From positions 533 through 64,532 of the forward strand of contig CAOJRT010000005.1 of the NCBI GenBank assembly GCA_948442255.1: a stretch of 64,000 bases of DNA, read 5' to 3'. Below, piece by piece: positions 6,351-44,080 of the stretch. Made by a program: the position numbers and the translations under genes. This DNA comes from an uncultured Bacillales bacterium. Its GTDB lineage: Bacteria > Bacillota_I > Bacilli_A > RF39 > UBA660. The stretch's first letter is position 1. Each line of letters opens with the position of its first letter. Below the pieces are notes generated by a model. It saw only the letters and a program-made list of their open reading frames with translations, was not told the origin of the DNA and did not search any database.

Positions 6351-6351
6351 T

Positions 6352-7041: not shown

Positions 7042-7042
7042 C

Positions 7043-7534: not shown

Positions 7535-7577
7535 GCAAAACACCTCTTCAACTACCCTTATTATACTGGTGTTTTTT

Positions 7578-7805: not shown

Positions 7806-7895
7806 ATTATCACCGCCTTAAATGTATCAAATAAATATGTAAAGTTCCATATATTCGACAAATAATGTCAAAATTAGTGGTTTTTATCTTTATTT

Positions 7896-7904
7896 CTGTT
7901 ATAA
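7896..7904 (+). promoter_or_regulatory. Extended -10 element (TGtTATAAT) upstream of murT
   Basis: TGTTATAAT lies 20 nt upstream of the murT ATG region; the -35 is not obvious. Confidence 0.5.
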
Positions 7905-7923
7905 TTTTTCTAAGGTGATAAAT

Positions 7924-9273: not shown

Positions 9274-9976
9274 AATTGCTCACTTATATTATGATTTAAT
9301 GAATTTGTATGGAGAAAACGGGAATGTTAGGTTTTTACAAAGCAGATTAGAAAGACAAGGCTTCAAAGTCCAAATTCATTTTTTAACCATTGATGATAAA
9401 ATTGACTTTAACTCCTATGATATTTATTATATTGGAACAGGAAGTGAAAAAAACGAAAAAATCGTTTTAGAAGACATTTTAAAATATAAAAAAGAAATCA
9501 AAGCAGCCTTTTTAAAAAACAAGTTTTTCTTAATTACAGGAAACGCTTTAAATTTCTTTGGTACAAAAATACAAGAAAACGATAAAGAAACAAAAGCTTT
9601 AGATATTTTTCCATATATTTCTACAATTGAGGACTTCCGTATTGTTGGCGAACAAAGATATCTTGATAGAAATGGAAAAGAAATCATTGGCTTTAATAAT
9701 CGAAACTGTATTACCGATATAAAAGAAAATCATCTATTTACTAAAATAATGGGTTGTGGTTGTAACCCAAATAGTCAAAAGGAAGGAATACATGAAAAAA
9801 ACTTTTATGGCACCTACTTACTCGGCCCTCTGCTCGTGAGAAATCCTCACTTTTGTGACAAATTGGTAAAAGAACTATGTAGGACTTATGAAGTTCCATT
9901 TAAAGAGCCAGATAGGGACGATGTTTCTTATATAGCTTACGAAAGATATTTAAATAATTTCCCTAAAAAAAGCTAA
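9260..9976 (+). CDS. gatD: Lipid II isoglutaminyl synthase, glutaminase subunit GatD (CobQ-type amidotransferase)
   Basis: IAHLYYDLMNLYGENGN start, CobB/CobQ GATase-like pattern, and a 14-nt overlap with murT as in known murT-gatD operons. Confidence 0.88.
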   Translation: MKTIKIAHLYYDLMNLYGENGNVRFLQSRLERQGFKVQIHFLTIDDKIDFNSYDIYYIGTGSEKNEKIVLEDILKYKKEIKAAFLKNKFFLITGNALNFFGTKIQENDKETKALDIFPYISTIEDFRIVGEQRYLDRNGKEIIGFNNRNCITDIKENHLFTKIMGCGCNPNSQKEGIHEKNFYGTYLLGPLLVRNPHFCDKLVKELCRTYEVPFKEPDRDDVSYIAYERYLNNFPKKS

Positions 9977-11391: not shown

Positions 11392-12288
11392 CTACTCCCA
11401 ATCAATAAACTCTTGTTCTACTTTTAAATCAACGGTTGTTTTTTCTTTTACAACATCATGCACGTAATGAATCAACTGGTAAACATCTTTACTCGTCGCA
11501 TTATTTTTATTAATAATAAAATTAGCATGTTTTGTAGAAACTTCTGCTCCTCCTAATTGGTATCCTTTTAAGCCACAGGCTTCAATCAAGCGCCCTGCAA
11601 AATCTCCTTCTGGATTTCGAAATACGGAACCAGCCGAAGGATAAGCAAGAGGTTGTGCTTCTAGGCGACGAACTCTTCTTTCTTCCATCATAAGAAGTGA
11701 ATTCTCTCTATCTCCATGTTTCAAAAAGAATTTAGCTCCTACAATTATATACCCCTTATTTTCTTTAAACATACTCGTTCGGTAACCGTAAGAAATCTCT
11801 TCGTGTTCAAGTGTTTTAATATCTAAATTTTCATCAATAACAGTAACCGAAGTTACATAATCCATAATACAAGAATTATAAGCCCCTGCATTCCCTGCTA
11901 TAGAACCTCCTATAGTACCAGGAATACCATAAGCAAACTCTAAACCAGTTAAGGAAGCCTCTACACTTTCCTTTACTAGTTTAGGAAGCATAACACCTGC
12001 TTCTGCATAAGCCATTTGCATATCGGCATTAATTTGAATTCCACATAAGTTTCCTAAACGAATAACAACTCCATTATATTCTCTATCATTTAAGATAATG
12101 TTAGAACCATTCCCAAGGATAAAATATTTCTCTTGATTTTTCTTAATCACTTTTAATCCTTCTACTAAATCAGTAATAGAATGAGGAGAGAATAAGACTT
12201 TAGCAGTCCCCCCTATTTTATAAGTATTTAGATTTCTTAATGATGCATGTAAAACTACTTCTCCTAAAGCCTCTAACTCTTTTATCAT
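11392..12288 (-). CDS. murB: UDP-N-acetylenolpyruvoylglucosamine reductase MurB
   Basis: NTYKIGG, ILGNGSN, PSAGSVFRNP and GGAEVSTKHANFIIN motifs. ATGA overlap with murG. Confidence 0.93.
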   Translation of the reverse strand: MIKELEALGEVVLHASLRNLNTYKIGGTAKVLFSPHSITDLVEGLKVIKKNQEKYFILGNGSNIILNDREYNGVVIRLGNLCGIQINADMQMAYAEAGVMLPKLVKESVEASLTGLEFAYGIPGTIGGSIAGNAGAYNSCIMDYVTSVTVIDENLDIKTLEHEEISYGYRTSMFKENKGYIIVGAKFFLKHGDRENSLLMMEERRVRRLEAQPLAYPSAGSVFRNPEGDFAGRLIEACGLKGYQLGGAEVSTKHANFIINKNNATSKDVYQLIHYVHDVVKEKTTVDLKVEQEFIDWE

Positions 12289-13370
12289 TTTATCAAATCC
12301 TTTATTTTCTTGTAAATAACATCCCCACTATTATTCATACTCATTTTACGCAAACTTTCTTTCATAGAAGAATAAAGTGCAGGGTTGTTAAGCACTCCAT
12401 TAATTTTATGCATTAATGCGTCCGATGTCAAATATTTTTCTTCAATCATGTCTCCACCACCCGCATTTTTTACTTCTAAAGCATTAAAATATTGATGATT
12501 ATTTGCTACATAAGGGGAAGGAATAAAGATAGCTGGTAATGCTAAAGAGAAAATCTCACTCATTGTGGAAGCTCCTGCTCTTGTAACAATTAAATCTGCA
12601 CTTTTTAATAAAGCAGGCAAATTATCAACGAACGGAACTACCTTTACATTAGTAGGAAACTTTTCTTCTTTAATAAAAGCATCATATAAATTCTTTCCTG
12701 TAATATATAAAACTTCATAGTTTTCCTTTTTAACTTGCTTTAAAAACTCTTTCATTTTTTCATTCATAGTCTGAGATCCCAAACTTCCAGCTACTACAAT
12801 CACCAATTTTTTATCTTTATGAAATCCAAGTGTTGTTTTATCTTGAGGTGGTGTATGAAGAGCGCTCTCTCCGCAAGGATTTCCAGCATAGAAAACTTTC
12901 CCTTTAGCATGGTTAAAATAAGGAATTGACTCTTTAAAAGAAACTCCTACTAAATCTGCTTTTTTCTGTAATAATAAATTAGATTTACCTGGATGCGAAT
13001 TTTGTTCATGAATAAATGTTTTTATTCCCAATTTAGAAGCAGCCCATATAACTGGATAAGTCACATACCCACCAAGTCCTAAGACAATATCAGGTTGAAA
13101 ATCCTTTATAATCTGCAAACACTTCTTTTTAGCCTTTTGTATACAAAACATATTTTTTACATCTAAAAATAAATCTCTTTTAGAAAAACCATATATCTCT
13201 AGTTCTTCATAACGAATCCCCTTTTTAGGGACGATATCTTTCTCCATACGATTGTGTGTTCCTATATATAATACTTCTACATGTTCTTCTTTTTCTTTAA
13301 ATTTATTTATAATAGCAAGGGCTGGATAAATATGTCCGCCTGTCCCTCCTGCTGAAACAATAATTTTCAT
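12285..13370 (-). CDS. murG: Lipid II glycosyltransferase MurG
   Basis: SAGGTGGHIYPALA N-terminus, TRAGASTMSE and NHQYFNA motifs. Confidence 0.93.
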   Translation of the reverse strand: MKIIVSAGGTGGHIYPALAIINKFKEKEEHVEVLYIGTHNRMEKDIVPKKGIRYEELEIYGFSKRDLFLDVKNMFCIQKAKKKCLQIIKDFQPDIVLGLGGYVTYPVIWAASKLGIKTFIHEQNSHPGKSNLLLQKKADLVGVSFKESIPYFNHAKGKVFYAGNPCGESALHTPPQDKTTLGFHKDKKLVIVVAGSLGSQTMNEKMKEFLKQVKKENYEVLYITGKNLYDAFIKEEKFPTNVKVVPFVDNLPALLKSADLIVTRAGASTMSEIFSLALPAIFIPSPYVANNHQYFNALEVKNAGGGDMIEEKYLTSDALMHKINGVLNNPALYSSMKESLRKMSMNNSGDVIYKKIKDLIK

Positions 13371-13536: not shown

Positions 13537-14520
13537 ATGGAAAAAAATACAACCAACGCTTTGTTAAAAGGAATTATAGATAAAGTAGATAGTCTATGTA
13601 AAAAGAAATCCTATCCTCCAAGCCTTTTAAATTATTTATATTTAATTGCTTATGGCATGATAAGTACTTATGGAACAGATTATAGTGATCTTATTTATAC
13701 AACTATTGAAGAAATTGAACTCCTTTTAGGATATGAGGCTTTAAATAAACAAAATAGTAAAGAAATAATTGAATCTGCCATGACATTTACATCTAACCAT
13801 AAAGATGCTTTTGTCTTACGAAAAGTCACAAAAAAAGAACACTCTTATGAAGTGCAAAAACAAATCTGTATTCTTTATGATTTCGAAAAAGAACCAAAGA
13901 TAAATCCTATTTTTATTTTAGAGTTTTTAGCTCATGAATATAATCGTAGTTTAACAAGTGTTAAAAGAAGCTTTTTCTACTTAAATGATAATCTAGCTTG
14001 TCGTTGTGGGTTATATCGTTATGTATTAGCTCAAAATAGCCAAGCTTACGCAAGTGGAAAAATAATAAGCGAAGTCGTTAATACTTTGCAAACAGAAGAT
14101 ATCATAAAAGAAATTCTAGCTTTAGACTATCATGATATAAAATATTCAGGCATTACTTCTATTTTGAAAGCTCTTTCTCTTTTATCTCCTGAAACATATG
14201 CCAGTACAAGATTTGCTAATGAAACCGCTTTATATCGAGATTTATACAATATTCCCACTTATAAAGAATTTATTAATACTAATATTTTAGAAGGAGATAT
14301 TGATGCCATTATCAATGATTTTGATGGAACGGTTGGTGCAAATGCCTTTGATGCATTCACTACTTTGTATGAAGAATATAATGCATCTTTAAAAAGAGGC
14401 GGAGAAAACAATTGGCAGAAGGAAGATGTTGCAATAACAGCTGCTCTTGCACAAAAAGGAAAAAGTATTATTTCTCTTTATACAGAAAAAAAATATCCAT
14501 GCATAAAGTATGATGTATAA
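13537..14520 (+). CDS. Hypothetical soluble protein (327 aa)
   Basis: Strong RBS (AAAGGAGGA). Long ORF in AT-rich DNA, mostly helical-looking, no motif recognised. Confidence 0.6.
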   Translation: MEKNTTNALLKGIIDKVDSLCKKKSYPPSLLNYLYLIAYGMISTYGTDYSDLIYTTIEEIELLLGYEALNKQNSKEIIESAMTFTSNHKDAFVLRKVTKKEHSYEVQKQICILYDFEKEPKINPIFILEFLAHEYNRSLTSVKRSFFYLNDNLACRCGLYRYVLAQNSQAYASGKIISEVVNTLQTEDIIKEILALDYHDIKYSGITSILKALSLLSPETYASTRFANETALYRDLYNIPTYKEFINTNILEGDIDAIINDFDGTVGANAFDAFTTLYEEYNASLKRGGENNWQKEDVAITAALAQKGKSIISLYTEKKYPCIKYDV

Positions 14521-14530
14521 TGGATATTTT

Positions 14531-16417
14531 TTATTGATCATTAATATGTTTAATAGCATCATCAGTAATTTCATAAAGTTCTTGAGGTAAAGGAGCAAAA
14601 GAGATGCTCTTTTTCTCATTATTTAAATATTTCCGAAAAACTCTTTCCAGTTCTATTTTTTCAATAGGTTTAGCTAAATAATCAGCAAACCCTTCTTTAA
14701 TATATTTATCTCGCATACCCTCAATAGCATTCGCTGTCAGGGCAATAACTCTTGTATCAAACTCAGGTATTTCTTGTAAAAGGTGTAATGTTTCTGTCCC
14801 AGATAACTTAGGCATCATATCATCCATAAAAATGAGATCATATGTTTTGCCAGCTTTTAATAGATACAAGCACTCGTCCCCACTAGTACAAGATTCTACT
14901 ATAAGACCATAACCTTTAAATAAACGTTCTGCCACTTTTATATTTAAAGCATTATCATCTACAAGTAAAACCCTTTTGTTAGTCAAAAGAAGTTCTGCCT
15001 CTTCCTTTTCAAACTCTTTAACTTTCTTTTCCACTATTTTTTGTTTTATATAAAAAGTAAATTTAGAACCACTACCAAAGACAGACTGTACAACTATTCT
15101 ACCTCCTAGCATTTCAACCAACTTTTTCGTAATAGCAAGTCCTAACCCCACTCCTTCAATCGTTGTATTCTTGTCTTCTTCTAATCTTTCAAATTTATTA
15201 AACAGCTTATCTATTTTTTCTGGTTTTATCCCACGCCCTGTATCTTCAACAGATACTACAAGAGAGGATTCATCATTTTTATTAATACAATTAACAGAAA
15301 AAGTAATTACTCCCTCATCTGTATATTTTACTGCATTTGTTAAAAGATTTGTGATAACTTCTTTCATTTTTCCTTTATCACCATATAAGAAATCTGGGAT
15401 ATCAGGAGCTAGAGAAAGCCGAAGTTCTACTTGCTTCTCCCCTATCCTTGGTTTTACTAATTTTACTAAAGTTTCACACTCTTCCTTTAAATTATATTCT
15501 CCATTAATAATTTCCATCTTATTCGCTTCAATTTTAGAGATATCCAAAATACCATTCACTATTTCTAAAAGATTCTCTGATGCTAAGATAATATCTTTAG
15601 CATCTTCTTTTGCTGCCTCCATAGTATCTTCCTCTAAAATAGCATTGCTAAATCCTACAATAGCATTAAGAGGTGTACGAATTTCATGAGACATACTAGA
15701 TAAAAAATCTGTCTTAGCCGTATTCGCTTTTTCTGCTTGATTTTTTGCAAGTTCTACTTGATTTAACATTTTTACATCAGGATTTTCCATGGTAAAATAC
15801 ATAACTAACAATACAAAAGCAACGATATAAGATTCTGTAATTAACTCAGGAAAATGCAATCGCAAAAGGAATCCAAAGATAAAGAAAACAAGAAAGACAA
15901 TAAAAGGTATACTTTTCTTAAAATTTCCCTTGTCTTTTACTAAATTAAGTACAATCAAAATTAGTATACTAATAAAATCAAATAGAATTCCCACCATAGC
16001 CGCTTCATAGGAAAGCCCTCCTACGTCTAAAACGCCATCAAAAATAATTACATCCACAGGAAGAATAAATACACATCCTACAAGACCAATTATAAAAATT
16101 AAAACAATAAAAGATAATATCTTTTTTGTCGTTTCTTTCAACTGATTAATTGCCAAGCAATATAAATATAATAAAAAACTAATAATGACTAATAAAGACA
16201 AATGGACCTTTTGCATCAATCCCGTTAAAAAAATATTACCATTTAATTGGGAAAACAAATAAACAACCAAAGCATTTAAAGAAAAAATTAAATTGCTAGT
16301 AATCATCCATTTATATAATGTTACTTCATGGTTATTAATATTTTTTTTGCTAAAAAAAATGATAAAAAGAAATAGACTGATTGTTAAAGCAGTTCCTGGC
16401 AACCATACACCACTCAT
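14531..16417 (-). CDS. Hybrid sensor histidine kinase / response regulator (polytopic sensor-HisKA-HATPase-REC)
   Basis: About 6-7 N-terminal TM helices, H-box SHEIRTPLNAIVGF, G-boxes DTGRGI and GVGLGLAI, and a C-terminal REC (VLLVDDNALN..FMDDMMP..KP). Confidence 0.9.
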   Translation of the reverse strand: MSGVWLPGTALTISLFLFIIFFSKKNINNHEVTLYKWMITSNLIFSLNALVVYLFSQLNGNIFLTGLMQKVHLSLLVIISFLLYLYCLAINQLKETTKKILSFIVLIFIIGLVGCVFILPVDVIIFDGVLDVGGLSYEAAMVGILFDFISILILIVLNLVKDKGNFKKSIPFIVFLVFFIFGFLLRLHFPELITESYIVAFVLLVMYFTMENPDVKMLNQVELAKNQAEKANTAKTDFLSSMSHEIRTPLNAIVGFSNAILEEDTMEAAKEDAKDIILASENLLEIVNGILDISKIEANKMEIINGEYNLKEECETLVKLVKPRIGEKQVELRLSLAPDIPDFLYGDKGKMKEVITNLLTNAVKYTDEGVITFSVNCINKNDESSLVVSVEDTGRGIKPEKIDKLFNKFERLEEDKNTTIEGVGLGLAITKKLVEMLGGRIVVQSVFGSGSKFTFYIKQKIVEKKVKEFEKEEAELLLTNKRVLLVDDNALNIKVAERLFKGYGLIVESCTSGDECLYLLKAGKTYDLIFMDDMMPKLSGTETLHLLQEIPEFDTRVIALTANAIEGMRDKYIKEGFADYLAKPIEKIELERVFRKYLNNEKKSISFAPLPQELYEITDDAIKHINDQ

Positions 16418-16446
16418 ACTACCACCTCTATTATTAGAATACCATC

Positions 16447-17436
16447 TTAATTACATTTTTTCAACAAATGTTTCACCATACCTTTATCCATTTCTCTTCT
16501 TAAAATTGTACTAGGAGATAAATCTGTTTTTGGTTTATATTGTGTATTTTCTATTTCTTCAATTGTATAGCCATTTTCTGTATCATACATAATAGAATTT
16601 ATAAAATCTGCATAAGCAAATAACCAATCTTTATCCAGTAAAGCTCTCTTTGTTTGCCCTTTTTTCTCCCATATTCTCCATTTTAAATCCATCATTTTTT
16701 GTCTTACTTCTCTCGCAATCCCAGCAGCATCCTCTACATTTGCACCTTGGATATTCATGTTTTCTCCAATATTTACATAATAGCGTTTTAAAAATTGCCC
16801 CCGATATTGCTCTATTGCTACAGGTACAATATCAGCATTCGTTTTAATCGCTCTTCTAATAGGAGCAGGATTTATATCACCTACAGGATAGACAGGATCC
16901 AAATGCCAAGCCTGTTCAGGAAAAGAAAGCTCATTTCCTCCTTGTGACAAAATCTTTGTCTGCCTAACATTAACTGTATGAGCATCTAGTTTTAACTCTT
17001 GGATTAATGCTTCATCTAAATTTTCATAGTCATTTTCCAACATATCAAACCAGCTTACTCCATTAAGACGTAAAATAAGACCATTTAAGTCAATATAAGT
17101 CTTCCCAGGATTACCCATAATAAACCAAGCACTTTCTCCAATAGAGGAAAGAGCACTTTCAATATCATATCTCCCTATATGCGTACATAGATACATTTTA
17201 GGCCTATCATTTAATATATGTTGATCTCCAATAATTTTCACAGTCCTTCGAGAAAATAGTTTATCTAAAAATAAAATAAAACGAATTAAAAAATAAATTT
17301 TTTTTCGCAAGCTTATACCCTCAACAGGTAAATCTTGCATCATTTCGTATTTACGATATTCTCGATAATATTTATTTAATTCAAAAAGAGCCATTTTTCT
17401 TTGTTCCCAAAAATTTTTCTTTTCAAAAGCCTCCAT
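16447..17436 (-). CDS. PlsC/LPLAT-family acyltransferase
   Basis: HX4D motif in CTHIGRYDIE, ~330 aa. An ATG at 17436 follows an AGAGGA RBS (the ORF track extends to 17499). Confidence 0.6.
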   Translation of the reverse strand: MEAFEKKNFWEQRKMALFELNKYYREYRKYEMMQDLPVEGISLRKKIYFLIRFILFLDKLFSRRTVKIIGDQHILNDRPKMYLCTHIGRYDIESALSSIGESAWFIMGNPGKTYIDLNGLILRLNGVSWFDMLENDYENLDEALIQELKLDAHTVNVRQTKILSQGGNELSFPEQAWHLDPVYPVGDINPAPIRRAIKTNADIVPVAIEQYRGQFLKRYYVNIGENMNIQGANVEDAAGIAREVRQKMMDLKWRIWEKKGQTKRALLDKDWLFAYADFINSIMYDTENGYTIEEIENTQYKPKTDLSPSTILRREMDKGMVKHLLKKCN

Positions 17437-17517
17437 AGTTTTTCCTCTTTTCACATATTCATTATAGCATTTAAAAATTCTTTTACCAAATTTTACCAAA
17501 TAAAAAGTAGAAAAAAG

Positions 17518-18330
17518 CTATTTAGAGTAACTTATCGTCTTTTCTACTACTTCCTTAATTTTCTGTTCACTAAAAGGCTTATTAATCATATCGACAATCG
17601 GATAAGTAAATGCTTTATGAATCGCTTCAGTAGAAGAGTCTCCACTAATAATCGTAACAGGCATTTTTAAAAATAAGTCCGCCTGATTTAAATACTCTAA
17701 AACCGCAAAGCCATCTACTTTAGGCATATTAAGGTCTAAAAGAATTGCTTTAATCTTTCCATCTTTTTCGTGCTCTTTAATAATATTTAGAGCTTCTTCT
17801 CCATTAGAAGCAAAAGAAAGTTCATAATTCGCATCAAATATCTTCTTTACAAAAATGCGAATAACTTCTGAATCATCGGCAACTAGAATAATATCTTCTG
17901 TATTTAGTGTCTCTACTTCACTATCAATCGTTGTCACATTTACAGGAGTAAACCCTTCCTCTTCTATATCCGCCCCATAAATATATTCATTGGTCATACC
18001 TTTTACATGCTTAATTTCATCTAACAAGGTAGAATAATATTGTTTCACAAATGCATAATGATTTGCTTTACTTTCTAGTTCATGTTGGTACGCAATATCC
18101 GCAAGTTTCATAAATCCTAAATATTTACAATCACTTTTTAATGAATGTACATAAATAGCATAATTAGGCATATCTGCCCTTTGATAATATTCCTCTATAA
18201 GACGAACTTTTTCTTCTAATCCTTTTTGAAATTCCAATATAGTATCATTGTAAGTATCTATATCACCAAGTAACTCTAAAGCATGATTTATATCGACTCC
18301 CTTACTCTTCAAATATTCTATACTTCTCAT
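17518..18330 (-). CDS. Hpt-REC phosphorelay protein (histidine phosphotransfer domain fused to a receiver)
   Basis: Hpt signature VHSLKSDCKYLG in the N-terminal four-helix-like region. The C-terminal REC has VADDSE, LLDLNMP and INKPF. No output domain. Confidence 0.8.
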   Translation of the reverse strand: MRSIEYLKSKGVDINHALELLGDIDTYNDTILEFQKGLEEKVRLIEEYYQRADMPNYAIYVHSLKSDCKYLGFMKLADIAYQHELESKANHYAFVKQYYSTLLDEIKHVKGMTNEYIYGADIEEEGFTPVNVTTIDSEVETLNTEDIILVADDSEVIRIFVKKIFDANYELSFASNGEEALNIIKEHEKDGKIKAILLDLNMPKVDGFAVLEYLNQADLFLKMPVTIISGDSSTEAIHKAFTYPIVDMINKPFSEQKIKEVVEKTISYSK

Positions 18331-18367
18331 TTTAATCACCTATCCTTGTTTTATCATATAAAAAGTT

Positions 18368-20620
18368 TTAATGCAATATTTCACCAATAATTTTTTCTAA
18401 ATCTTCTTTAGAGAATGGTTTGCTTAAATATCCTGCAAAAGGATGACTCTGTAATTTCTCTTTTACCTCTTCTTCACTAGACGCTGTCATCATTATAACA
18501 GGAGTACTAAAGTTTTCTAAAGAACTCAAATTATCTAACGTAGAACAGCCATCTAACTCAGGCATCATTTCATCAAGAAAAATAAGATCGAAGTTTTCTT
18601 CAATACATTTTTCTATAGCCTGACTTCCACTTGTTACCGTAGTAACAACACAATCATATTGTTTTAATGCATTTAAGGCAACTTTTAAATTTAATTCATT
18701 ATCATCTACTAGTAGAATCTTCTTCCCTTTATAACTCACTTTATTATCACTTTCTAACAAAGAAGAATCAAGTATAGAAGAAGCATAATTCGTGCTACTT
18801 GCATTCATCGTATCTGTACTTTTTTTATGGAGATAAGTTTTAATAACACGCTCTAATTCCTTTTTTTCAATTGGTTTAGATAAATAATCATCAAATCCAC
18901 AAGCAAGATATTCTTCTTTCATTCCTGTTATTGCATTCGCTGTTAAAGCTATTGTAGGGATATGAAAATTAGGATTACTTTTTAATCTTTTGATGGTTTC
19001 CTTCCCAGATAGTTTTGGCATCATATCATCTAAGAATATCAAATCGTAGGAATCGTCTTTTTTTATTTTTGCTAGACATTCTAATCCGCCACTCGCTGTA
19101 TCAATCGTAAAATTATACTTTTTTAATAAAGTAGAAGCTACTTTAATATTTAAAGCATTATCATCTACAAGTAAGATTCTAGCTCCCTTTGCATCTATAA
19201 TTTTAGAATTAGACAAAGCATCTTCGATTTTTTTAGGTGCTTCTACCGAAATAATTCTTTGATCAATCGAAATAGTAAACTTAGAACCTTCTCCATAAAC
19301 CGATTGTACAACAATTTTTCCATTCATCAACTCAATTAGTTTTTTAGTAATTGCAAGGCCTAAACCTGTTCCTTCGATTGTCAGTTGTTTTTCCACATCC
19401 AATCGTTCAAATTTAGAAAACAATTTAGGCAAAGATTCTTCTTTAATACCAATACCACTATCTTCTACAGAAACAATTAATCGGCATACATTATCTTTTA
19501 CAACACTAGAAACTGTGAAATCAACATACCCTTCTTTCGTATATTTAACAGCATTCGTTAATATATTTAAAATAATTTGTTTTAAACGAATATTATCTCC
19601 ATATAATACTCTTGGTAAAGAAGGATCTATATGGACTCTAAAAGCAAGTCCTTTATCTCCAATACGAGCCTTAGTTAAAGCGATTAGTTCATCAAATACT
19701 TCTTTTATATCATATTCTTTATTAATAATTTCTAATTTATTCGCCTCTATTTTCGATATATCTAGAATTCCATTTACTATTTCAAGTAAATTATTTGAAG
19801 CCATAATGATATCATCTACTTTTTCTCGAGCAGATAGAGGGATTGAGTCATCTTTTAAACTTTCAGAAAAACCAACAATTGCATTTAAAGGGGTTCTAAT
19901 CTCATGGGACATATTACTTAAGAAGTCTGATTTGGCATGATTTGCTTTTTCTGCCGCTTCTTTAGCCGTTCCTAATTCCTCAATTAACTTCATATCAGGA
20001 TTTTCAATTGTAAAATAGGTTATATATGTAATAAATGTCTCTAAAGGCGTAATTAATAGTAGTCCAGGCACTTTAAATTGTATAATAGCAACTATCCCAC
20101 TTAATAAGGTATAAATAAAAATAGGATAATACTTTCTAGCCTGCATATGTTTAAAATGAATTATAACACTTATAATATTTATAAAAACAAAAATGACACT
20201 TATAAAATACACAAAGTTTTGGGCACTTCCCACAATAGCAGGTCCAAATTTAGTATTTATAAAGGAAATATCCCCTAATAGTACACTTATACAACAAAAA
20301 ATTATAAAAATATAGTATAAACATAAAACTTTTTTACTTCGTTCCTTAGAAAGAAATAAAATATACAATGTAAATAGAGCTATCCATATAATTAAAATTA
20401 ACAAATATGCTTTAAGAATGGCCTCACTAAAAATAGGAATTATATTAACTGAAAAAAAAGTACAAAAAAACTCCATAAACAAAGAAATACAGTTAACTAT
20501 CATTATATATTTAAATATTTTATTCTGTTTATTTTGCAGTCTTTTTTTCGAAAAGAATTCTAAAATTAATAACAGGCTAAAAAATATACTAAGAATTGGC
20601 AGCATTAATGCAATCGTCAT
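18368..20620 (-). CDS. Hybrid sensor histidine kinase with two receiver domains (paralogue of 14531..16417)
   Basis: Polytopic N-terminus, H-box SHEIRTPLNAIVGF, DSGIGI and GTGLGLAI, then two REC domains (ILLVDDNALN..FLDDMMP and ILLVDDNELN..FLDEMMP). Confidence 0.9.
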   Translation of the reverse strand: MTIALMLPILSIFFSLLLILEFFSKKRLQNKQNKIFKYIMIVNCISLFMEFFCTFFSVNIIPIFSEAILKAYLLILIIWIALFTLYILFLSKERSKKVLCLYYIFIIFCCISVLLGDISFINTKFGPAIVGSAQNFVYFISVIFVFINIISVIIHFKHMQARKYYPIFIYTLLSGIVAIIQFKVPGLLLITPLETFITYITYFTIENPDMKLIEELGTAKEAAEKANHAKSDFLSNMSHEIRTPLNAIVGFSESLKDDSIPLSAREKVDDIIMASNNLLEIVNGILDISKIEANKLEIINKEYDIKEVFDELIALTKARIGDKGLAFRVHIDPSLPRVLYGDNIRLKQIILNILTNAVKYTKEGYVDFTVSSVVKDNVCRLIVSVEDSGIGIKEESLPKLFSKFERLDVEKQLTIEGTGLGLAITKKLIELMNGKIVVQSVYGEGSKFTISIDQRIISVEAPKKIEDALSNSKIIDAKGARILLVDDNALNIKVASTLLKKYNFTIDTASGGLECLAKIKKDDSYDLIFLDDMMPKLSGKETIKRLKSNPNFHIPTIALTANAITGMKEEYLACGFDDYLSKPIEKKELERVIKTYLHKKSTDTMNASSTNYASSILDSSLLESDNKVSYKGKKILLVDDNELNLKVALNALKQYDCVVTTVTSGSQAIEKCIEENFDLIFLDEMMPELDGCSTLDNLSSLENFSTPVIMMTASSEEEVKEKLQSHPFAGYLSKPFSKEDLEKIIGEILH

Positions 20621-20680
20621 ACTATCACCTATATTATTATAACATTTCTAAAAAAGAAAAAGAAGATTTTATTATAGCAT

Positions 20681-22705
20681 TTATCTTCTTTTTCTTAATT
20701 TAGCTTCGTCTTCAATTAATTGTTTTGTTCCTTCTATACCTAGTTCTTTTATCTTTTGTACACTTCTTTTACAACTTCCAGTAACTGGGAAGTCCCCTTT
20801 TATTCTTCTAATTCTTACTTTGGATAAAATACTATTTCCAAACTTTTGTATCAAAACATTTCTTATATCTTCCTCTATTTCTTTCTCTAAAGAGGAGGTC
20901 ATTTTTAAAACTTTTCTGTTACGATCCATTTTAGTTTTACAAGGGATATAATTGATTATTAAAAATTCTTGATTATATTCAATCGTGGTTACTGAAAATA
21001 TTCTATTCAAATTGGAAATAGTTTCATTTATTAAATTAGCACTATATTTTACATTTTCCTCAGAAGTATATATTTGCTCATACCTACCATGTATACTTAC
21101 TGTATTATTTCTATTTATTTTACCCTCAGTGTGCATAAAACACCAAGTTCTTCCATAAGCATCTGTAATTTGAGTTTTAAGCGTCTCTTCATCATTCCCT
21201 TTATAACCCTTAAAAGTTCCATGAGTTGGGCTAGTAACTATAATACCATTTTGATCATAATCTTTTTCTTCTAAAGTATCAGGATCTAAAACAGCAACAA
21301 TTACATCAGAATAGCTTTCTAAACTATATTTCACTTTGTCTTGATTATTTATATTTAATAAATTTTTAAAAGACCTAAACATTGTAAAAAAGATTCCTCC
21401 TCTTTCACAATCTCCCCCCCCTACAGACATAGTAATAGGGATTGGAATAGTATAATTGCCTAATTTAAAACCTTTTCCTGCCTTAAAGAAATGAAGAAAT
21501 GAATTTAATAATTTTTCTTCATTTACCATTAAGCCCTCTCCTACTGCGCATGGGACAAGTAGCCATTTCATTGGTTCATATATACCCTCTCGATAATATT
21601 TTTTACCCATTTTGGCAGCAGCAATATATAAACTAGTTGTGCTCGCAGCTATATTAGGCTGATTTATATATAAAACATCCAAAAAAGTTTCTAAACTATA
21701 TTCTGGTTCAAAAGCTACAATTCCTCCTTGAAAAATAATATCTAGCATTTGTGTTATATTTCCTGTATTAGAATCTACATGTATATTAAATAACGATTTT
21801 AGTCCTTTCATAGAAGCCGTTTTTGCAATTTCTGGTTTATGCCTAATTGAACTAATAATAACAGAACCATTATCGTGAAACATAGCTTTAGGATTTAAAG
21901 CTGTAGACCCACTAGTGTAAGTTACAGAAGAAACTTCTTCAAATGAAGCATTCCTATCATATATTTTTTTTATTAAATCCTTATCAATTTCTAAATCTAA
22001 GAGTTTAGAAAAAGGTGTAATATTAGAATTTTCTTTCTTTAATTGTTCTACACTACTTTGATAAGAGTAGTACTTATTTAGCTTTTTCCTCATCTCATTA
22101 GAATATTCTTTTGGAGGACAACATTCACTTGTCAAAGAGTCCGCCAAAGAATTAAGGACTATCTTTCTTCCACATGGTATTATGTTTTTTAGAAGAATAT
22201 AATCTTTATCTGTCATAAATATAGCTTTACAAGAAGTCGAAGTTATGATAGATTCGAGCATTTCTGTAGAATAAGCACTAACAAAGCTATTACATATTGC
22301 TCCAATTGCGTTTAGAGCACATTTTATATACAAATACTCTGGCGTATTTGACATACAAATAGCAATTTCATCTCCCTGACGAATTCCTAAAACTTTATAT
22401 ACATAAGTAATTGTTTTTTCAATGTTTTCAATAAGTTCTCTTCCAGAAATATTTCTTCCTCTATAAAATGCACAAATTCTGTTTAAGTCCTCTTCTAAAA
22501 CTTTTTTCATTTGATAGAACCAACTTTGATTCTTTTCTCTAGTATAATCACTCCATTTTTGTTCAATAAGTTCTTTCCTAGCTGCTTTAGTTCTTTCTTG
22601 GACCTGTGATGGTTTATTAAATAAAGCTAAACCTCTTTCATTTATTTGGCAATTGTTCAACTTTTTTATATATTCTTTTGCTTTTTTCAAGCCGATTTTA
22701 TCCAT
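20681..22705 (-). CDS. Divergent ANL-superfamily adenylate-forming enzyme (acyl-CoA/acyl-ACP synthetase-like)
   Basis: AMP-binding core TYTSGSTALNPKA and a C-terminal PVTGSCKRS (the A10-like lysine). An ATG at 22705 follows GGGGGA (the ORF track extends to 22804). Contains a G8 tract at 21414..21421. Confidence 0.65.
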   Translation of the reverse strand: MDKIGLKKAKEYIKKLNNCQINERGLALFNKPSQVQERTKAARKELIEQKWSDYTREKNQSWFYQMKKVLEEDLNRICAFYRGRNISGRELIENIEKTITYVYKVLGIRQGDEIAICMSNTPEYLYIKCALNAIGAICNSFVSAYSTEMLESIITSTSCKAIFMTDKDYILLKNIIPCGRKIVLNSLADSLTSECCPPKEYSNEMRKKLNKYYSYQSSVEQLKKENSNITPFSKLLDLEIDKDLIKKIYDRNASFEEVSSVTYTSGSTALNPKAMFHDNGSVIISSIRHKPEIAKTASMKGLKSLFNIHVDSNTGNITQMLDIIFQGGIVAFEPEYSLETFLDVLYINQPNIAASTTSLYIAAAKMGKKYYREGIYEPMKWLLVPCAVGEGLMVNEEKLLNSFLHFFKAGKGFKLGNYTIPIPITMSVGGGDCERGGIFFTMFRSFKNLLNINNQDKVKYSLESYSDVIVAVLDPDTLEEKDYDQNGIIVTSPTHGTFKGYKGNDEETLKTQITDAYGRTWCFMHTEGKINRNNTVSIHGRYEQIYTSEENVKYSANLINETISNLNRIFSVTTIEYNQEFLIINYIPCKTKMDRNRKVLKMTSSLEKEIEEDIRNVLIQKFGNSILSKVRIRRIKGDFPVTGSCKRSVQKIKELGIEGTKQLIEDEAKLRKRR

Positions 22706-22842
22706 TCTATTTTCCCCCACAATCTCTAAATAATTGTACGTTATTTTTAGTAAATTGGCAAGATTTACTAAACATTTTTTAAAGATTATATGCAAATTTA
22801 GCATTAAAATTCCGTTTTAGAAAGAATAATATTAAGATTTTC

Positions 22843-24390
22843 TTATTCCTTCTCCATTATTTTTATAGCCACTTTAATTCCATCTACTGCAGCAGAAGTA
22901 ATTCCTCCCGCATAACCAGCTCCTTCCCCACAAGGATAAATGCCCTCTATATTCGATTCTAAAACCTCATTGCGCAAAATAGTAACTGGAGAGGAAGAAC
23001 GTGTTTCTACTCCCGTTAAAATAGCATCAGGATGGGCAAAACCATTTATCTTTGTATCAAAATACTTAATTCCATCTTTTAGAGTCTTGGCTACAAAGGA
23101 AGGTAATATATCATTTAGATTAGATAATGTATACCCTGGCTTATAGGTAGGAATAATACTTCCTATTGAAGCAGATTTCCGATTAAGTAAGAAATCTTCT
23201 ACTCTCTGTACAGGCGCAAAGCCATTCTCTCCTCCAATAAGGTAAGCACTCTTTTCTAATTTTTCTTGAAAATACATACCAGCAAGAGGATCTTCACTTG
23301 CAAAATCAGATTCTAATATATTCACAAGGATAGCACTATTTGCATTTTCTTTATCTCTTTTGAAAGTTGACATCCCATTCGTAACAATGGCTCCCTTTTC
23401 TGAAGAAGAAGCAATAACTTCTCCACCAGGACACATACAGAAGGTAAAACAACTTCTTTCTGCATTATGATAAGCAAGTTTATACTCAGCTGGCGGTAAT
23501 GCTAACTTAGAATAAGTTCCATACTGACTTTCATTTATCATTTGCTGTTTATGCTCTATACGAAGCCCTACAGCAAAATTCTTCTTTCGTAAAGCAAAGT
23601 TATTTTTCTGTAACATTCTATATGTGTCTCTTGCACTATGTCCTATAGCTAAAACCAAAGCATCTGTCTTAAATTCTTGATTTTCACAAATTACATGAAT
23701 CATATCTTCTCTTTTTATATCTATCATTTTAGTACCAAAATAATAAGTACCACCCTTTTTTTCAATATAATCTCGTATATTCTTTAGAATATAAACTAAA
23801 TTATCTGTTCCAATGTGCGGTTTATTTAAATAGGTAATTTCTTTTGGTGCACCAAATTGATGAAAATAGGATAAAACTTTTTTTATATAAGGAGAAGAAA
23901 TTCCTGTTGTTAGTTTGCCATCACTGAACGTTCCTGCTCCTCCTTCGCCGAATTGAACATTGCATCGCTCATTTAGATTACCTGTATTTCGATATTCTTC
24001 GACAAAACGCATTCTTTCTTCAACACTTGCTCCCTGTTCCAAAATAATAGGTTGAAATCCATGATCAACAAGAGTAAGTGCGCAAAAAAGACCCGCAGGA
24101 CCCGCCCCTACAATAATAGGTCGCCATTGTGATTTCCTTACAACTTGTATTAGTTCTTCTTCTTTTTCTTCTACTTTTTTAAACTTGGGATATTTACTTT
24201 CTTTTTTTACATTAACTGCTAAAGAATAGTTATAATAAATATCTTTTTTATCTCTTGCATCTATCGACTTTTTCAATATCCTAATAGCAAGAACATCTTC
24301 TTTAGCAATTTTATACTTAGTTAAAACAAAAGAAATAATTTCTTCTTCCGCTAAATCTTCTCTAATTTTTATATTATCTATGCGTAACAT
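22843..24390 (-). CDS. FAD-dependent oxidoreductase (COG2509-like, function unknown)
   Basis: Rossmann GxGxxG (IIVGAGPAGLFCAL) after a ~85-aa N-terminal domain, and a C-terminal GEGAGYAGGI. Confidence 0.75.
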   Translation of the reverse strand: MLRIDNIKIREDLAEEEIISFVLTKYKIAKEDVLAIRILKKSIDARDKKDIYYNYSLAVNVKKESKYPKFKKVEEKEEELIQVVRKSQWRPIIVGAGPAGLFCALTLVDHGFQPIILEQGASVEERMRFVEEYRNTGNLNERCNVQFGEGGAGTFSDGKLTTGISSPYIKKVLSYFHQFGAPKEITYLNKPHIGTDNLVYILKNIRDYIEKKGGTYYFGTKMIDIKREDMIHVICENQEFKTDALVLAIGHSARDTYRMLQKNNFALRKKNFAVGLRIEHKQQMINESQYGTYSKLALPPAEYKLAYHNAERSCFTFCMCPGGEVIASSSEKGAIVTNGMSTFKRDKENANSAILVNILESDFASEDPLAGMYFQEKLEKSAYLIGGENGFAPVQRVEDFLLNRKSASIGSIIPTYKPGYTLSNLNDILPSFVAKTLKDGIKYFDTKINGFAHPDAILTGVETRSSSPVTILRNEVLESNIEGIYPCGEGAGYAGGITSAAVDGIKVAIKIMEKE

Positions 24391-24408
24391 AAAATTTCAC
24401 CCATAAAA

Positions 24409-24417
24409 ATTATAACA
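24409..24417 (-). promoter_or_regulatory. Extended -10 (TGtTATAAT on the minus strand) for the FAD-protein/phosphorelay operon
   Basis: Immediately follows the rbr terminator T-run; the downstream RBS is GGGTGA. Confidence 0.5.
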
Positions 24418-24437
24418 AAAAAAAGACACGAAGTCTT
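24417..24437 (-). terminator. Rho-independent terminator of rubrerythrin
   Basis: The minus strand reads AAGAC-ttcgt-GTCTT followed by T8, starting 5 nt after the stop. Confidence 0.65.
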
Positions 24438-24441
24438 CTTC

Positions 24442-24981
24442 TTAATAATTTTCTGCTTGAAGTTCAAAATAACTTTTTGGATGTGCACATACAGGACATA
24501 CTTCTGGCGCTTTTTTACCAATAACAATATGACCACAATTTCTACAAATCCAGATTGCATCTTCGTCTTTACTAAATACAACTTGATCTTCCATATTTTT
24601 TAGAAGTTTTCTATATCTTTCTTCATGATGTTTTTCAATAGCTCCCACTGCTCTAAATTTAGCAGCTATTGCTTTGAATCCTTCTTCTTCAGCTACACGA
24701 GCAAACTCATCATACATGTCAGTCCACTCGTAGTTTTCTCCTCCAGCAGCTGCAAGTAAATTTTCTTCTGTAGATGGAATATCTCCACCATTTAATTCTT
24801 TAAACCACATTTTAGCATGTTCTTTTTCATTATTTGCTGTTTCTTCAAAAATAGCTGCAATTTGTTCATATCCATCCTTTTTAGCTTTTGATGCAAAATA
24901 AGTATACTTATTTCTAGCTTGAGATTCCCCTGCAAAAGCTGTCATTAAATTTTGTTCTGTTTTTGAACCTTTTAATTCCAT
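24442..24981 (-). CDS. rbr: Rubrerythrin
   Basis: [30 protein letters not shown], the EH pair of the diiron site, and a C-terminal rubredoxin CRNCGH..CPVCAH. An ATG at 24981 follows AAGGAG (the ORF-track extension to 25074 is rejected). Confidence 0.92.
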
Positions 24982-25082: not shown

Positions 25083-25862
25083 CTATTTTATATCTTTATT
25101 CTCAAATGATAAACGCTGTAATTCTAATCTTTCCTGCCTACGAGCAGATAAAACTTCTTTTGGCAAACGTATCTTGCGTATATTTTCTATCATTTCTTTA
25201 AATGGTTGACAATCTTGCACTGTTTTCGTAAGAAAAAATTGCAAAACAACTTCTGGAGAAAACCAAAATAACAAGTTCCCATCTTTATCAATGGCAAAAG
25301 CAAGTATAGATTTTTTTTCTGTATCTTCCATAATAAGAGTCGAATGAAGGGTATGAGGGTCAATTACCACAGTAGCAGTCCCTGCTTCATTTTTAGAAAT
25401 AGAAACGATTGGGTCTACATCTGCAAAAACATCCTCGTGAGAAATATAGGTAGAAATTAAAGAGTATATAGTTTCCTTCTTAGCAACGAGGAAATGATAG
25501 CAATTCATAGAATCGAAAGCTACATCCTCTCCCATTTCCTTTATAAAAAAAGAAGCTGGAAAAAGAGAACTAATTTCTTCTTTTTGTAAACATTTTTCTC
25601 CCGCTATGTCAATAACAAAATAGCGCTGTTTTGATAGTTGAACAATAAGATAAAGTCTCCCATTTACTTTTTGACACTTTATCTTAGATACAACAAATGT
25701 TTTTTCTAAATTCTCTTTTTGAAGCAAAGTATTTACCCCTTGCCAAACGAAACTTTCCTCTTTAATCGCTTGAAGAGCATCTTCTAACAACAATGTATCT
25801 GCTTTAGGAGCAAGTAAATCTTCCATTAAGCTTTTTTCGTAATCTTGTACTACACTTTCCAT
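25083..25862 (-). CDS. Hypothetical protein (259 aa)
   Basis: An ATG at 25862 follows AAGGAAGG. No motif recognised. Confidence 0.55.
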
Positions 25863-26086
25863 AACAAAACCTTCCTTTACTATCATTATACAAGAAAATA
25901 AATAGATATACTTATAACTTTTTGTTATAGAAGCATTCGTTTTATCTATAAAATAGTATGATATTTTAAAGGATTTGCGATTTTTTTTATTTTAAAATCT
26001 AAGGCTCTATGTTGATAGACCTTAAGAATCCCTATCAAGATGTTCTCTTTTTCTCCTCTCATTTTGGTAGGAGAAAAACACACATA

Positions 26087-27169
26087 TTATTCTTTTTTAC
26101 TAATTCCTAGAATAATTCCAACAGAAATCAATGAAACAAGTAAAGATGATCCTCCATAAGAAATAAAAGGTAAAGTAACTCCTGTAGTCGGTATAATTCC
26201 GCATACAACGCATAGATTTAGTGTGGCTTGTAACAAGATTCCAAAAGAAAGACCGAACACTAAATATTTTTTAAACAAATCACTTTCATTTAATGCTATT
26301 TTAACAGAACGATAAAATAAAAAGACAAATAAACCGATAACAAATAAAGCTCCTGGGAACCCTAACTCTTCTACAATAATACTAAAAATAAAATCCGTTT
26401 GTGGTTCTGGTAAATAAAAGTTTTTCTGTACAGAAGAGCCAAGCCCTGTCCCTAGAAGTCCAGAAGGAGCTATGGCATATAAACTTTGAATAATTTGAAA
26501 TCCACTTCCTAAAGGATCACTCCAGGGATTTAAATAAGCAACAATTCTGGCCATGCGGTAAGGGGCGATTGCAATTAAAAGGGCAATACCAAACAATCCC
26601 ACCAAGCCAATTTTGATAAAAAAGGACAAATTGGGTCCTGCCACAAAAATCATAACAATCAAAGTTAAAATTATAACCATAGCTGTACCAAAATCAGGTT
26701 CTAACATGATAAGTAAGAAAAAAACACAAATCACTAAAAATAAAGGCAAAATCCCCTTTTTTATACTTTTAATATCTCGTTCATTGTGCGCTAAATACTT
26801 TGCTGTAAAAATAATTAACGCTATTTTGGAAAATTCAGAAGGTTGGATTCCTAAAGAACCAATTCCAAACCAACTTCTAGAACCATTTCTTACACTTCCA
26901 ATTCCAGGAATTAGAACGAGTATTAAAAAAATTAACGATAAAAATAACAAACGATTCGCATTTTTTTTATAAAAATCAGGTGGAATACGTATTAATAAAA
27001 ATATAAGAAAAATCCCTACTCCAAAGAAAATTGCTTGAGCAGTCACAAATTTGTAGGGATTATGGAACTTATATTCTGCCCATATATTCGAAGAAGAATA
27101 AATCATCAGTATTCCAAATAAGATAAGAAGGATAACAGAGAAAAATAAAGATTTATCTATTTTTTTCAT
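26087..27169 (-). CDS. ftsW: SEDS-family peptidoglycan polymerase FtsW/RodA/SpoVE
   Basis: About 10 TM helices, GSRSWF..GSLGIQPSEFSK and PFISYGGSS motifs, in dcw context. Confidence 0.88.
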   Translation of the reverse strand: MKKIDKSLFFSVILLILFGILMIYSSSNIWAEYKFHNPYKFVTAQAIFFGVGIFLIFLLIRIPPDFYKKNANRLLFLSLIFLILVLIPGIGSVRNGSRSWFGIGSLGIQPSEFSKIALIIFTAKYLAHNERDIKSIKKGILPLFLVICVFFLLIMLEPDFGTAMVIILTLIVMIFVAGPNLSFFIKIGLVGLFGIALLIAIAPYRMARIVAYLNPWSDPLGSGFQIIQSLYAIAPSGLLGTGLGSSVQKNFYLPEPQTDFIFSIIVEELGFPGALFVIGLFVFLFYRSVKIALNESDLFKKYLVFGLSFGILLQATLNLCVVCGIIPTTGVTLPFISYGGSSLLVSLISVGIILGISKKE

Positions 27170-37924: not shown

Positions 37925-37996
37925 AAAATTTCTCCTTATATTTAAACATTTTATCATAATACCTTATGAATGCAAGAAAAAAATAGAACCGCAGTT

Positions 37997-44079: not shown

Positions 44080-44080
44080 T

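Follow-up and report, generated by a model that had tools for sequence, protein, structure and literature searches.

Acyl-enzyme and membrane-kinase gene pairs in uncultured gut and rumen Bacilli as candidate lipid-signalling modules

Introduction

In the Vibrio CqsA/CqsS and LuxM/LuxN quorum-sensing channels, which signal through LuxU to LuxO, the synthase gene lies beside the gene of its receptor, a hybrid histidine kinase (HK) in which a polytopic membrane bundle is the only input and is followed by DHp, CA and receiver (REC) domains. CqsS binds the lipid CAI-1 inside a bundle of six transmembrane (TM) helices, and several channels converge on one histidine phosphotransfer (Hpt) protein (PMC13174287). 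A comparable arrangement is present in a stretch of 64,000 nt from an uncultured Bacillales bacterium (GenBank assembly GCA_948442255.1, contig CAOJRT010000005.1, positions 533 to 64,532; hereafter the window), in which a predicted ANL-superfamily adenylating enzyme (G2) and a putative LPLAT/PlsC-superfamily acyltransferase (G5, or AT) are each encoded directly upstream of a polytopic hybrid kinase (G3, or HK1, and G6, or HK2, respectively). The functional unit is this two-gene pair of acyl enzyme and polytopic hybrid kinase, not the six-gene operon that an initial annotation of the locus had described, and the window holds two such modules, ANL-HK1 and AT-HK2, around one shared Hpt-REC protein (G4). 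The two modules are distinguished because the enzyme-kinase pair is what recurs in other genomes, whereas its flanking genes are heterogeneous.

The likeness to quorum-sensing relays appears to be one of wiring and not of family membership, because the sensor domain is without a detectable relative, the enzymes belong to other superfamilies, and no LuxO-, RpfG- or DNA-binding-type output is found. As in Vibrio, two enzyme-kinase pairs would be served by a single Hpt protein. Unlike in Vibrio, the enzymes are of the ANL and PlsC superfamilies and not a pyridoxal phosphate-dependent CqsA or a LuxM-type synthase, the Hpt domain is fused to a bare receiver with no LuxO-type sigma-54 regulator, and the hosts are gut Bacilli of the Gram-positive lineage and not Gammaproteobacteria. 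CqsS is absent among the PDB-sequence matches to full-length HK2 at E <= 1e-20.

The diffusible signal factor (DSF) system of Xanthomonas and Stenotrophomonas offers a second parallel. Its signal is fatty-acid-derived, as the acyl signal proposed here would be, its gene cluster contains an ANL-family fatty acyl-CoA ligase, RpfB, and its hybrid kinase RpfC combines a 5-TM (or 10-TM) input domain with REC and HPt domains (PMC4504480). The receiver of that system controls the synthase by direct binding (PMC4504480), which at the present locus is only a possibility. In S. maltophilia, rpfF and the RpfC input domain vary jointly between the rpf-1 and rpf-2 variants (PMC4517397), a synthase-sensor co-variation that parallels the HK1 mosaic described below. 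In contrast to the DSF system, the locus encodes neither a crotonase-type RpfF nor an HD-GYP protein of the RpfG type; the ANL gene of the rpf cluster is not the kinase-paired gene, and gene order and orientation differ.

Among Gram-positive pheromone systems, agrBDCA, comQXPA and comCDE carry their signal gene or genes and the kinase sensor as a hypervariable cassette while the cytoplasmic kinase and the regulator are conserved, as in the HK1 mosaic. These systems use ribosomal peptides, non-hybrid kinases and DNA-binding regulators and vary within species, whereas the variation seen here lies between species or genera. With regard to the enzymes, E. coli Aas, a bifunctional acyl-ACP synthetase / 2-acyl-GPE acyltransferase, resembles the locus in bringing the ANL and PlsC/LPLAT superfamilies together; unlike in Aas, the enzymes are independent of one another and interchangeable upstream of HK1, and the AT lacks the Arg of motif III. 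We know of no link between Aas and two-component signalling. A PlsC-family (lysophosphatidic acid (LPA) acyltransferase) protein, HdtS, has reportedly been proposed as an N-acyl-homoserine lactone (AHL) synthase, and its homology to G5 is at the superfamily level only. The initial annotation did not recognise the gene combination as a described system; in agreement with this, no description of an acyl-enzyme/membrane-kinase pairing was found in the literature.

Two-gene enzyme-kinase modules

The pairing was found from either partner. A search that started from the AT, with one genome kept per species, gave 35 phylogenetically related loci, all of them in metagenome-assembled genomes (MAGs) of uncultured gut or rumen Bacilli. 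Among the 33 loci with downstream sequence, 32 have an HK2-type hybrid kinase directly after the AT; the clear exception is an orphan AT (L013). Likewise, a hybrid kinase directly follows the intermediate homologues of the ANL enzyme in five of five cases (L042, L046, L047, L048 and L049, the last of which was found from the sensor). The most distant members of the G2 clade, from Clostridia (L043, L045), do not adjoin kinases. A sensor-first search of metagenome contigs returned more than 578 loci; the 80 best were retained, among them 73 kinases with visible upstream sequence. The gene upstream encodes an AT in 37 of these 73, an ANL enzyme in 31, another kinase in 2 and unrelated proteins in 3, the orphan receptors of the set, where enzyme classes were assigned by local hidden Markov models (HMMs) and only spot-checked against Pfam. 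In the 68 cases with an enzyme, the gap between enzyme and kinase genes has a median of 62 nt (range 8-135). The initial annotation had proposed examining whether enzymes and kinases stay together in related genomes; they do so in dozens of species and in several hundred loci from metagenomes.

Beyond the pair itself little is shared. Genes one position further upstream lack a relative within the set in 55 of 76 cases, and Hpt-REC is the only recurrent family downstream, in 6 of 69. The six-gene order of the window recurs in close relatives (L005, L006, L009, L010, L011). The commonest form, present in most species loci, is an AT-HK pair without an ANL gene, and ANL-HK pairs without an AT are found as well (L042, L046, L048, L049). 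In L001, a second acyltransferase, a paralogue of the AT, takes the place of the ANL enzyme, L026 contains two ATs and no ANL enzyme, and kinases in L001, L026 and L031 are preceded by different PF01553 acyltransferases. Several genomes carry more than one pair (L026, L031, L041, L073, L074). Multiple pairs of this sort, like the orphan receptors and the orphan AT, have counterparts in known quorum-sensing families. Since each enzyme pairs with its own kinase, occurs alone and has been exchanged in L001, the ANL enzyme and the AT are interchangeable partners and not complementary halves. The proposal that they form a split Aas-like pair is not supported by this pattern: they do not travel together, and each has a kinase of its own.

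Additional observations concern the surroundings of individual modules. In L026, on the 1.26-Mb MAG contig SVAI01000001.1, an ATP-grasp ligase (PF14397), a PF01553 acyltransferase and a hybrid kinase lie in succession (6094-9957), with a second AT-HK pair directly after them; an amide-forming ligase in combination with an acyltransferase gives a hint that the product may be acylated and of amino-acid or peptide type. Two tandem paralogous proteins with no assigned family (224 and 218 aa) are encoded just upstream of the ANL-replacing AT in L001 (3308-4739). L001 also has a further 265-aa protein without a family assignment between Hpt-REC and the second AT, and at this position L011 has a 251-aa AT-like protein. 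Modules with differing enzymes lie beside genes of the division and cell wall (dcw) cluster, namely ftsW, murG or murB, in L001, L011, L025, L034, L037, L047, L049 and L105, and this recurrence across lineages suggests a fixed chromosomal site for cassette exchange.

Co-variation of sensor and enzyme

The sensor domain follows the class of the partner enzyme closely. The nearest-neighbour sensor shares the enzyme class for 94 of 95 distinct kinases, whereas the nearest-neighbour kinase core does so for 70 of 95 (with permuted labels, mean 52 and maximum 68). The HK1 orthologues are mosaics. Between the window and its closest relatives, the core of HK1 (aa 215-600) is 81-83% identical, an identity above that of the housekeeping FAD neighbour G1 in related loci (68-70%), whereas the HK1 sensor (aa 1-200) reaches 29-48%, and the enzyme encoded upstream of it is 24-48% identical or belongs to another family. 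Sliding identity along HK1 rises from 10-37% to 80-100% at about residue 200-225. Because of this mosaic, with its jump in identity, enzyme and sensor domain appear to be swapped together as a cassette on a conserved signalling chassis. A reading of the hypervariable cassette as anti-phage defence was considered and rejected, as a PADLOC scan gave generic REC/HATPase noise only.

Taken with the linkage, these data make it very probable that the enzyme and the sensor of each module are functionally coupled. A shared ligand would be the most economical mechanism of such a coupling.

Kinases and phosphorelay

HK1 (G3; 18368..20620, minus strand) and HK2 (G6; 14531..16417, minus strand) are hybrid histidine kinases of HisKA-HATPase-REC-REC and HisKA-HATPase-REC architecture, respectively, as assigned with Pfam and NCBIfam. 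HK1 consists of a polytopic sensor (aa 1-215, ~19976-20620), a DHp domain with H239, a CA domain and two receivers (REC1 with D531, REC2 with D683), and HK2 of a polytopic sensor (aa 1-220, ~15758-16417), a DHp domain with H244, a CA domain and one receiver with D532. PF00512 and PF02518 score above cut-off in both kinases, and both contain the H-box SHEIRTPLN. Matches to the receiver family PF00072 occur in G3 (two), G4 and G6, and all of these receivers have the DD pair and the Lys besides their phospho-acceptor Asp. Among 97 distinct kinases of the family, 67 are HK-REC, 14 HK-REC-Hpt, 8 HK-REC-REC and 7 HK-REC-REC-Hpt.

The sensor is a membrane-only domain of 6-7 predicted TM helices with no extracytoplasmic domain, and invariant polar residues are placed inside its helices (E31, Q69, D131, K168, R186, E191, E195). 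Neither sensor domain has a Pfam match at E <= 10, and the sensor profile has no match among PDB sequences. The domain is nonetheless widespread: with 50% clustering, an exhaustive HMM search yielded 2,972 cluster representatives (E <= 1e-3), 531 of them with E <= 1e-30, whereas a word-indexed search with the same profile under-counts the family (57 matches, mostly protein fragments). The proteins that carry it have ~590-650 aa or 730-1040 aa, and it always forms their N-terminal part.

The Hpt-REC fusion G4 (17518..18339, minus strand) was assigned from Pfam and conserved residues, namely H65 in the HSLKSD motif of the Hpt domain and D202 and K254 in the receiver. PF01627 reaches 20-22 bits in G4, below the gathering score of 24.6; its orthologues reach E 7.9e-08, and H65 and the key residues are kept in nine of nine aligned orthologues. 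All phosphorelay residues at H1, D1, H2 and D2 are canonical and conserved. An Hpt domain is fused to the kinase or adjacent to it in 32 of 87 loci, and every separate Hpt protein is either an Hpt-REC fusion or Hpt alone.

G4 ends after its receiver, and no HTH, GGDEF or other output domain occurs in the operon. The remark of the initial annotation that the relay has no output domain and ends on a bare receiver holds at this locus and at every related locus. The output-less character extends to the whole family, because separate Hpt proteins are Hpt-REC or Hpt alone and no further REC protein is encoded within +/-10 kb of any related locus; in addition, no HTH or GGDEF family appears among the 69 downstream neighbours. 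The window encodes just one further regulator, of the OmpR type (40667-41356). It was considered as an output of the relay and rejected, because it is accompanied by a kinase of its own and by a BceAB-like ABC transporter. It forms part of a BceRS/BceAB-like module on the minus strand (39463-44752) that is unrelated to the relay and also comprises this kinase (39463-40677), a permease of the FtsX/MacB type (41380-44106) and an ABC ATPase (44081-44752).

The paired enzymes

G2 (20681..22705, minus strand) is a divergent ANL adenylating enzyme of 674 aa when read from its M34 start; the open reading frame (ORF) reaches 22804. It scores 56 bits against PF00501 (cut-off 29.9), and both the A3 motif TYTSGST and the A10 Lys of the GSxKR motif (GSCKRS in G2) are invariant in its family. 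A search of Pfam with its C-terminal half gave nothing meaningful at E <= 10, and G2 has no predicted membrane segment. The AlphaFold model (pLDDT 85) has the two-domain ANL fold, and Foldseek retrieved ANL enzymes (E 4e-28), the top target-normalised TM-score (0.84) being that of an amide-bond synthetase, with MatB, 4CL, luciferase and ACS as further structural neighbours. Judged from this model, the fold appears to be a generic ANL fold, with nothing that ties G2 specifically to acyl-ACP synthetases or to Aas. The best NCBIfam matches are long-chain-fatty-acid--CoA ligases.

Two peculiarities set the G2 clade apart. One is an invariant GGGDCE(H/R)GG insertion (residues 462-470 in ORF numbering) with a near-invariant Cys-Glu-His. 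The other concerns the A7 motif, which is canonically Y/W-x-TGD in ANL enzymes and carries a ribose-binding Asp; at the A7 position, aligned by eye, G2 has TEG and most family members have YGY, and no Asp is conserved. The insertion and the apparent lack of the canonical TGD might reflect an unusual acceptor or an unusual transfer chemistry. Enzymes of the G2 type are rare as well as divergent (32 matches among 5.8 billion proteins in a word-indexed search). Thus far, G2 is a candidate synthase or processor of the HK1 ligand.

The AT, G5 (16447..17436, minus strand; 329 aa from M22, with an ORF that reaches 17499), was assigned from homologues, motifs and fold. It seems to be an LPLAT/PlsC acyltransferase at the superfamily level only, because G5 itself has no Pfam match (E <= 10), its family profile has a marginal match only among PDB sequences (5KYM at E 0.23) and about half of its homologues match PF01553. 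The family is rare, with 81 matches among 5.8 billion proteins, and a PDB sequence search with G5 returned 0 matches. The HIGRYD motif (HX4D; H107, D112) is invariant in 15 family members and aligns to the HX4D of T. maritima PlsC (PDB 5KYM), and the family is likewise invariant for FPE in motif III and (I/V)PV in motif IV (IVPVAIE in G5). In the AlphaFold model (pLDDT 80), family-specific helical extensions lie N- and C-terminal to the catalytic core. In the PDB, Foldseek ranked PatA, plastid GPAT and human GPAT1 highest (E 1e-5 to 1e-3; probability 1.0; TM 0.31-0.44).

Motif III of G5 reads FPEQAW against FPEGTR in PlsC, and across the family it is (F/Y)(P/G)E(A/G)(A/G)(W/Y), with no Arg or Thr. 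The Arg of PlsC motif III is held to bind the glycerol-phosphate acceptor. Because the Arg of EGTR is missing, the acceptor of G5 is probably not a glycerol phosphate. The lysophospholipid acceptor envisaged by the initial annotation thus loses ground on both sides, the AT lacking this Arg and the ANL fold being generic. Of the domain content listed in that annotation, the FAD protein, the ANL enzyme, the two kinases and the HIGRYD motif stood, whereas the acyltransferase has no Pfam match and the Hpt domain stays below the gathering score.

A lipid-signal reading and its alternatives

The reading favoured here, with a rough probability of 0.45, is that the window encodes two parallel lipid-signal synthase/receptor channels of the quorum-sensing type with a self-made signal. 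The enzyme of each module would make or tailor an acyl compound of lipophilic nature, such as an acyl amide or an acyl ester, which would enter the membrane, bind within the helix bundle of the adjacent kinase and shift its kinase/phosphatase balance. Phosphoryl groups would pass in HK1 and HK2 from H1 to D1 and on to the Hpt H65 of G4, the point of convergence, and from there to D202 of the receiver fused to it. This receiver would act as a single-domain response regulator by protein contacts, feedback on the enzyme being one possible target. That the product of the enzyme is the ligand, that the signal is self-made, and how phosphate and output run are what we infer; directly shown are the domains that the proteins contain, the linkage of enzyme and kinase genes and the fact that the sensor co-varies with the enzyme. 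In line with this reading, both enzymes appear to retain their catalytic motifs and the folds of condensing or acyl-transfer enzymes. A wider version, in which a widespread family of lipid quorum-sensing systems in uncultured gut and rumen Bacilli reads acylated autoinducers within the membrane through a new class of hybrid-kinase sensor domain, swaps its cassettes as private 'dialects' and has bare-receiver output, is put forward tentatively, with the odds somewhat against it.

Several points weigh against the synthase/receptor reading. To our knowledge, no PlsC-like acyltransferase or ANL enzyme is firmly established as the synthase of an autoinducer; HdtS is at the same time a genuine LPA acyltransferase, its role as a synthase is disputed, and its gene is not known to lie beside a receptor kinase. 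Searches of Pfam and PDB sequences detected no homology of the sensor to CqsS, LuxN or RpfC. No locus contains a DNA-binding regulator, and two thirds of the loci are also without an Hpt domain. The mosaic is seen between species or genera and not between strains of one species, as true 'pherotype' polymorphism would require. All hosts are uncultured MAGs. Finally, the co-variation would be equally expected if the enzyme and the sensor recognised the same imported lipid.

This last point leads to the alternative that survives best, although it is considered unlikely, namely that the modules serve scavenged lipids. The helix bundle would detect an exogenous fatty acid or lipid of host, dietary or microbial origin, the ANL enzyme would activate it and the AT would incorporate it, and a shared substrate would accommodate linkage and co-variation equally well. 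The hosts belong to uncultured Bacilli of the gut and rumen that have reduced genomes. Scavenging is plausible in such hosts because related gut Bacilli such as the RF39 order lack fatty-acid synthesis and are thought to incorporate exogenous fatty acids (PMC6784871), a description given for the order as a whole. ANL and PlsC-type proteins are classic enzymes of fatty-acid activation and incorporation, as the long-chain-fatty-acid--CoA ligase matches of G2 recall, and RpfB, the ANL enzyme of the DSF system, serves to recycle free fatty acids and does not make the signal (PMC4504480). However, the module neighbourhoods have no conserved gene for a transporter, a FakB-like binding protein or a catabolic enzyme, and the loci contain no transcription factor to induce the enzyme. 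Phospholipid assembly is doubtful for an AT without the glycerol-phosphate-binding Arg of motif III. The G2 clade is rare and divergent (GGGDCEHGG, no obvious A7 TGD), unlike a FadD-like housekeeping ligase. Wholesale swapping of cassettes among close relatives would also be unusual for a nutrient pathway.

A further and rather improbable alternative is that the enzyme is an accessory or a target of the kinase and not the source of its ligand. The enzyme could co-sense acyl-ACP, acyl-CoA or the state of the membrane and report it through contact with the helix bundle; the receiver of the kinase could bind the enzyme and gate it post-translationally; or the enzyme could acylate the kinase itself or a lipid in tight association with the kinase. 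Both the tight one-to-one adjacency and the sensor-enzyme co-variation are compatible with these versions, as are the helical extensions of the AT, which are specific to its family. Most modules have an HK-REC kinase only (67 of the 97 kinases) and neither an Hpt domain nor a regulator at the locus, which makes a closed circuit of two proteins plausible for them. Precedents exist in RpfC, whose REC domain sequesters RpfF (PMC4504480), and in CqsA, which binds the cytoplasmic part of CqsS and inhibits the kinase (PMC13174287). On the other hand, it is the membrane sensor that co-varies with the enzyme, whereas the receiver is conserved together with the core, which speaks against REC-enzyme specificity as the principal coupling. 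The ANL enzyme is predicted to lack a membrane segment, and the Hpt domains fused or adjacent in 32 of 87 loci imply onward phosphotransfer.

The model of the initial annotation, a lipid-damage relay that controls a split Aas-like re-acylation of lysophospholipids, retains very little probability. Both enzyme superfamilies of Aas are indeed present, the sensors are membrane-only, and the six-gene order is kept in five close relatives. Against this, the ANL enzyme and the AT are not co-inherited and are tied each to its own kinase, as the replacement of the ANL enzyme by an AT in L001 and the two ATs of L026 exemplify; the AT lacks the phosphate-binding Arg of PlsC motif III; and the structural neighbours of the ANL enzyme are luciferase, 4CL, MatB and amide-bond synthetases, not acyl-ACP synthetases specifically. 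An adjacency of enzyme and kinase that reflects descent or chance with no functional link, a view to which the uncultured state of all hosts lends some room, is essentially refuted, as the pairing persists across contexts that have no other gene in common, is found with either partner as search seed, and comes with a sensor that follows the class of the enzyme much more closely than does the kinase core. What probability remains is left to explanations outside those listed.

Genomic context of the modules

Six co-directional genes had been described at the locus, and six ORFs were confirmed on the minus strand at 14531-24390. Their reported spacing of 18-60 nt was revised, since two starts had been over-called: M34 (22705) is favoured for the ANL gene by a Shine-Dalgarno sequence, GGGGGA, and by homologue lengths of 669-672 aa, and M22 (17436) for the AT gene, with the Shine-Dalgarno sequence AAGAGGA. 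Translation of the two genes most likely begins at these codons, and the gaps from G1 to G6 are then 137, 60, 28, 81 and 29 nt.

The first of the six genes, G1 (22843..24390, minus strand), encodes an FAD-dependent protein (PF21688 / HI0933-like, from Pfam). It had been counted as a member of the operon; since only 3 of ~75 neighbourhoods have a G1-type gene upstream of the enzyme, it is a neighbour outside the signalling module. The FAD gene, a 267-aa protein (hyp267) and rubrerythrin were all considered as members of the system and rejected. The 267-aa ORF (25083-25886, minus strand), between ftsW and the rubrerythrin gene, has no family match and is not kept beside the module in other loci.

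The extended -10-like element TGTTATAAT (24409..24417, minus strand) was located as described in the initial annotation, just past the rubrerythrin terminator, a hairpin with U-run at ~24399-24442 (dG -11.7 kcal/mol, z -2.8), and is likely the promoter of the FAD gene, from which read-through into the module is possible. The 137-nt gap before the ANL gene contains a promoter-like TTGCCA-17-TACAAT (22733..22761, minus strand), and the 81-nt gap before the AT gene a TTGGTA-17-TATAAT with a TG extended -10 (17461..17489, minus strand). Both are consensus matches only; the former is a possible promoter of the module itself and the latter of the AT-HK2 pair. Promoter-like sites are not enriched in this AT-rich region (75 found versus 68.7 expected), which leaves the scan uninformative. 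Rfam detected no family at gathering score, and no tRNA, rRNA or riboswitch match, over the whole window (1-64000), and thus no riboswitch or leader in the 137-nt or 81-nt gap. At the convergence of HK2 and G7, a hairpin between an A-run and a U-run (14487..14532; dG -11.5 kcal/mol, z -2.8) is likely a bidirectional terminator that closes the unit.

G7 (13537..14520, plus strand) encodes a soluble 327-aa protein without known family, with no match in Pfam (E <= 10), PDB sequences or PADLOC. It is convergent to HK2 in every six-gene relative (L001, L005, L009, L010, L011), at 29-32% identity, and in L005 it stays beside HK2 although murG is not the next gene. Possibly G7 serves the relay as an accessory, or is one of its targets, and evolves fast; its membership is uncertain.

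The placement between ftsW and murG was borne out by the flanking genes. One flank comprises mraY, a D-Ala-D-Ala carboxypeptidase gene, ftsW (26087-27169), the 267-aa protein and rubrerythrin; the other comprises the convergent G7 followed by murG (12285-13370), murB, ftsQ and queH. The position between mraY and ftsW, usually taken by murD in dcw clusters, is occupied by the PBP5-like D-Ala-D-Ala carboxypeptidase gene (27208-28413, minus strand), and no murD was found in the stretch examined. A repeat search for mobile-element borders around the insert returned only repeats due to the paralogy of HK1 and HK2. About 13 kb from the module lies a gene for a YhhN-family membrane protein (37217-37957, minus strand), which is presumably lipid-related, as the family includes lysoplasmalogenases.

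Implications

Bacillota are the textbook users of peptide pheromones with simple kinases, and hybrid kinase-Hpt relays and lipid autoinducers are regarded as proteobacterial. If lipid quorum sensing is true of the modules described here, they would represent non-peptide, Vibrio-style quorum sensing in a Gram-positive lineage, and if the enzymes make the ligands, they would amount to a new chemical language of the gut microbiome with a ready list of synthase/receptor pairs. Should the kinases sense scavenged lipids of host or dietary origin instead, they would show how some gut Bacilli monitor the lipids that they need. The hosts are abundant but uncultured Bacilli of the gut and rumen, and the analysis exposes in them a large sensor family without a Pfam model, which deserves a family definition and whose examined members are tied to an acyl-handling enzyme. 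Under either reading, the rule that pairs enzyme and kinase provides a direct experimental handle.

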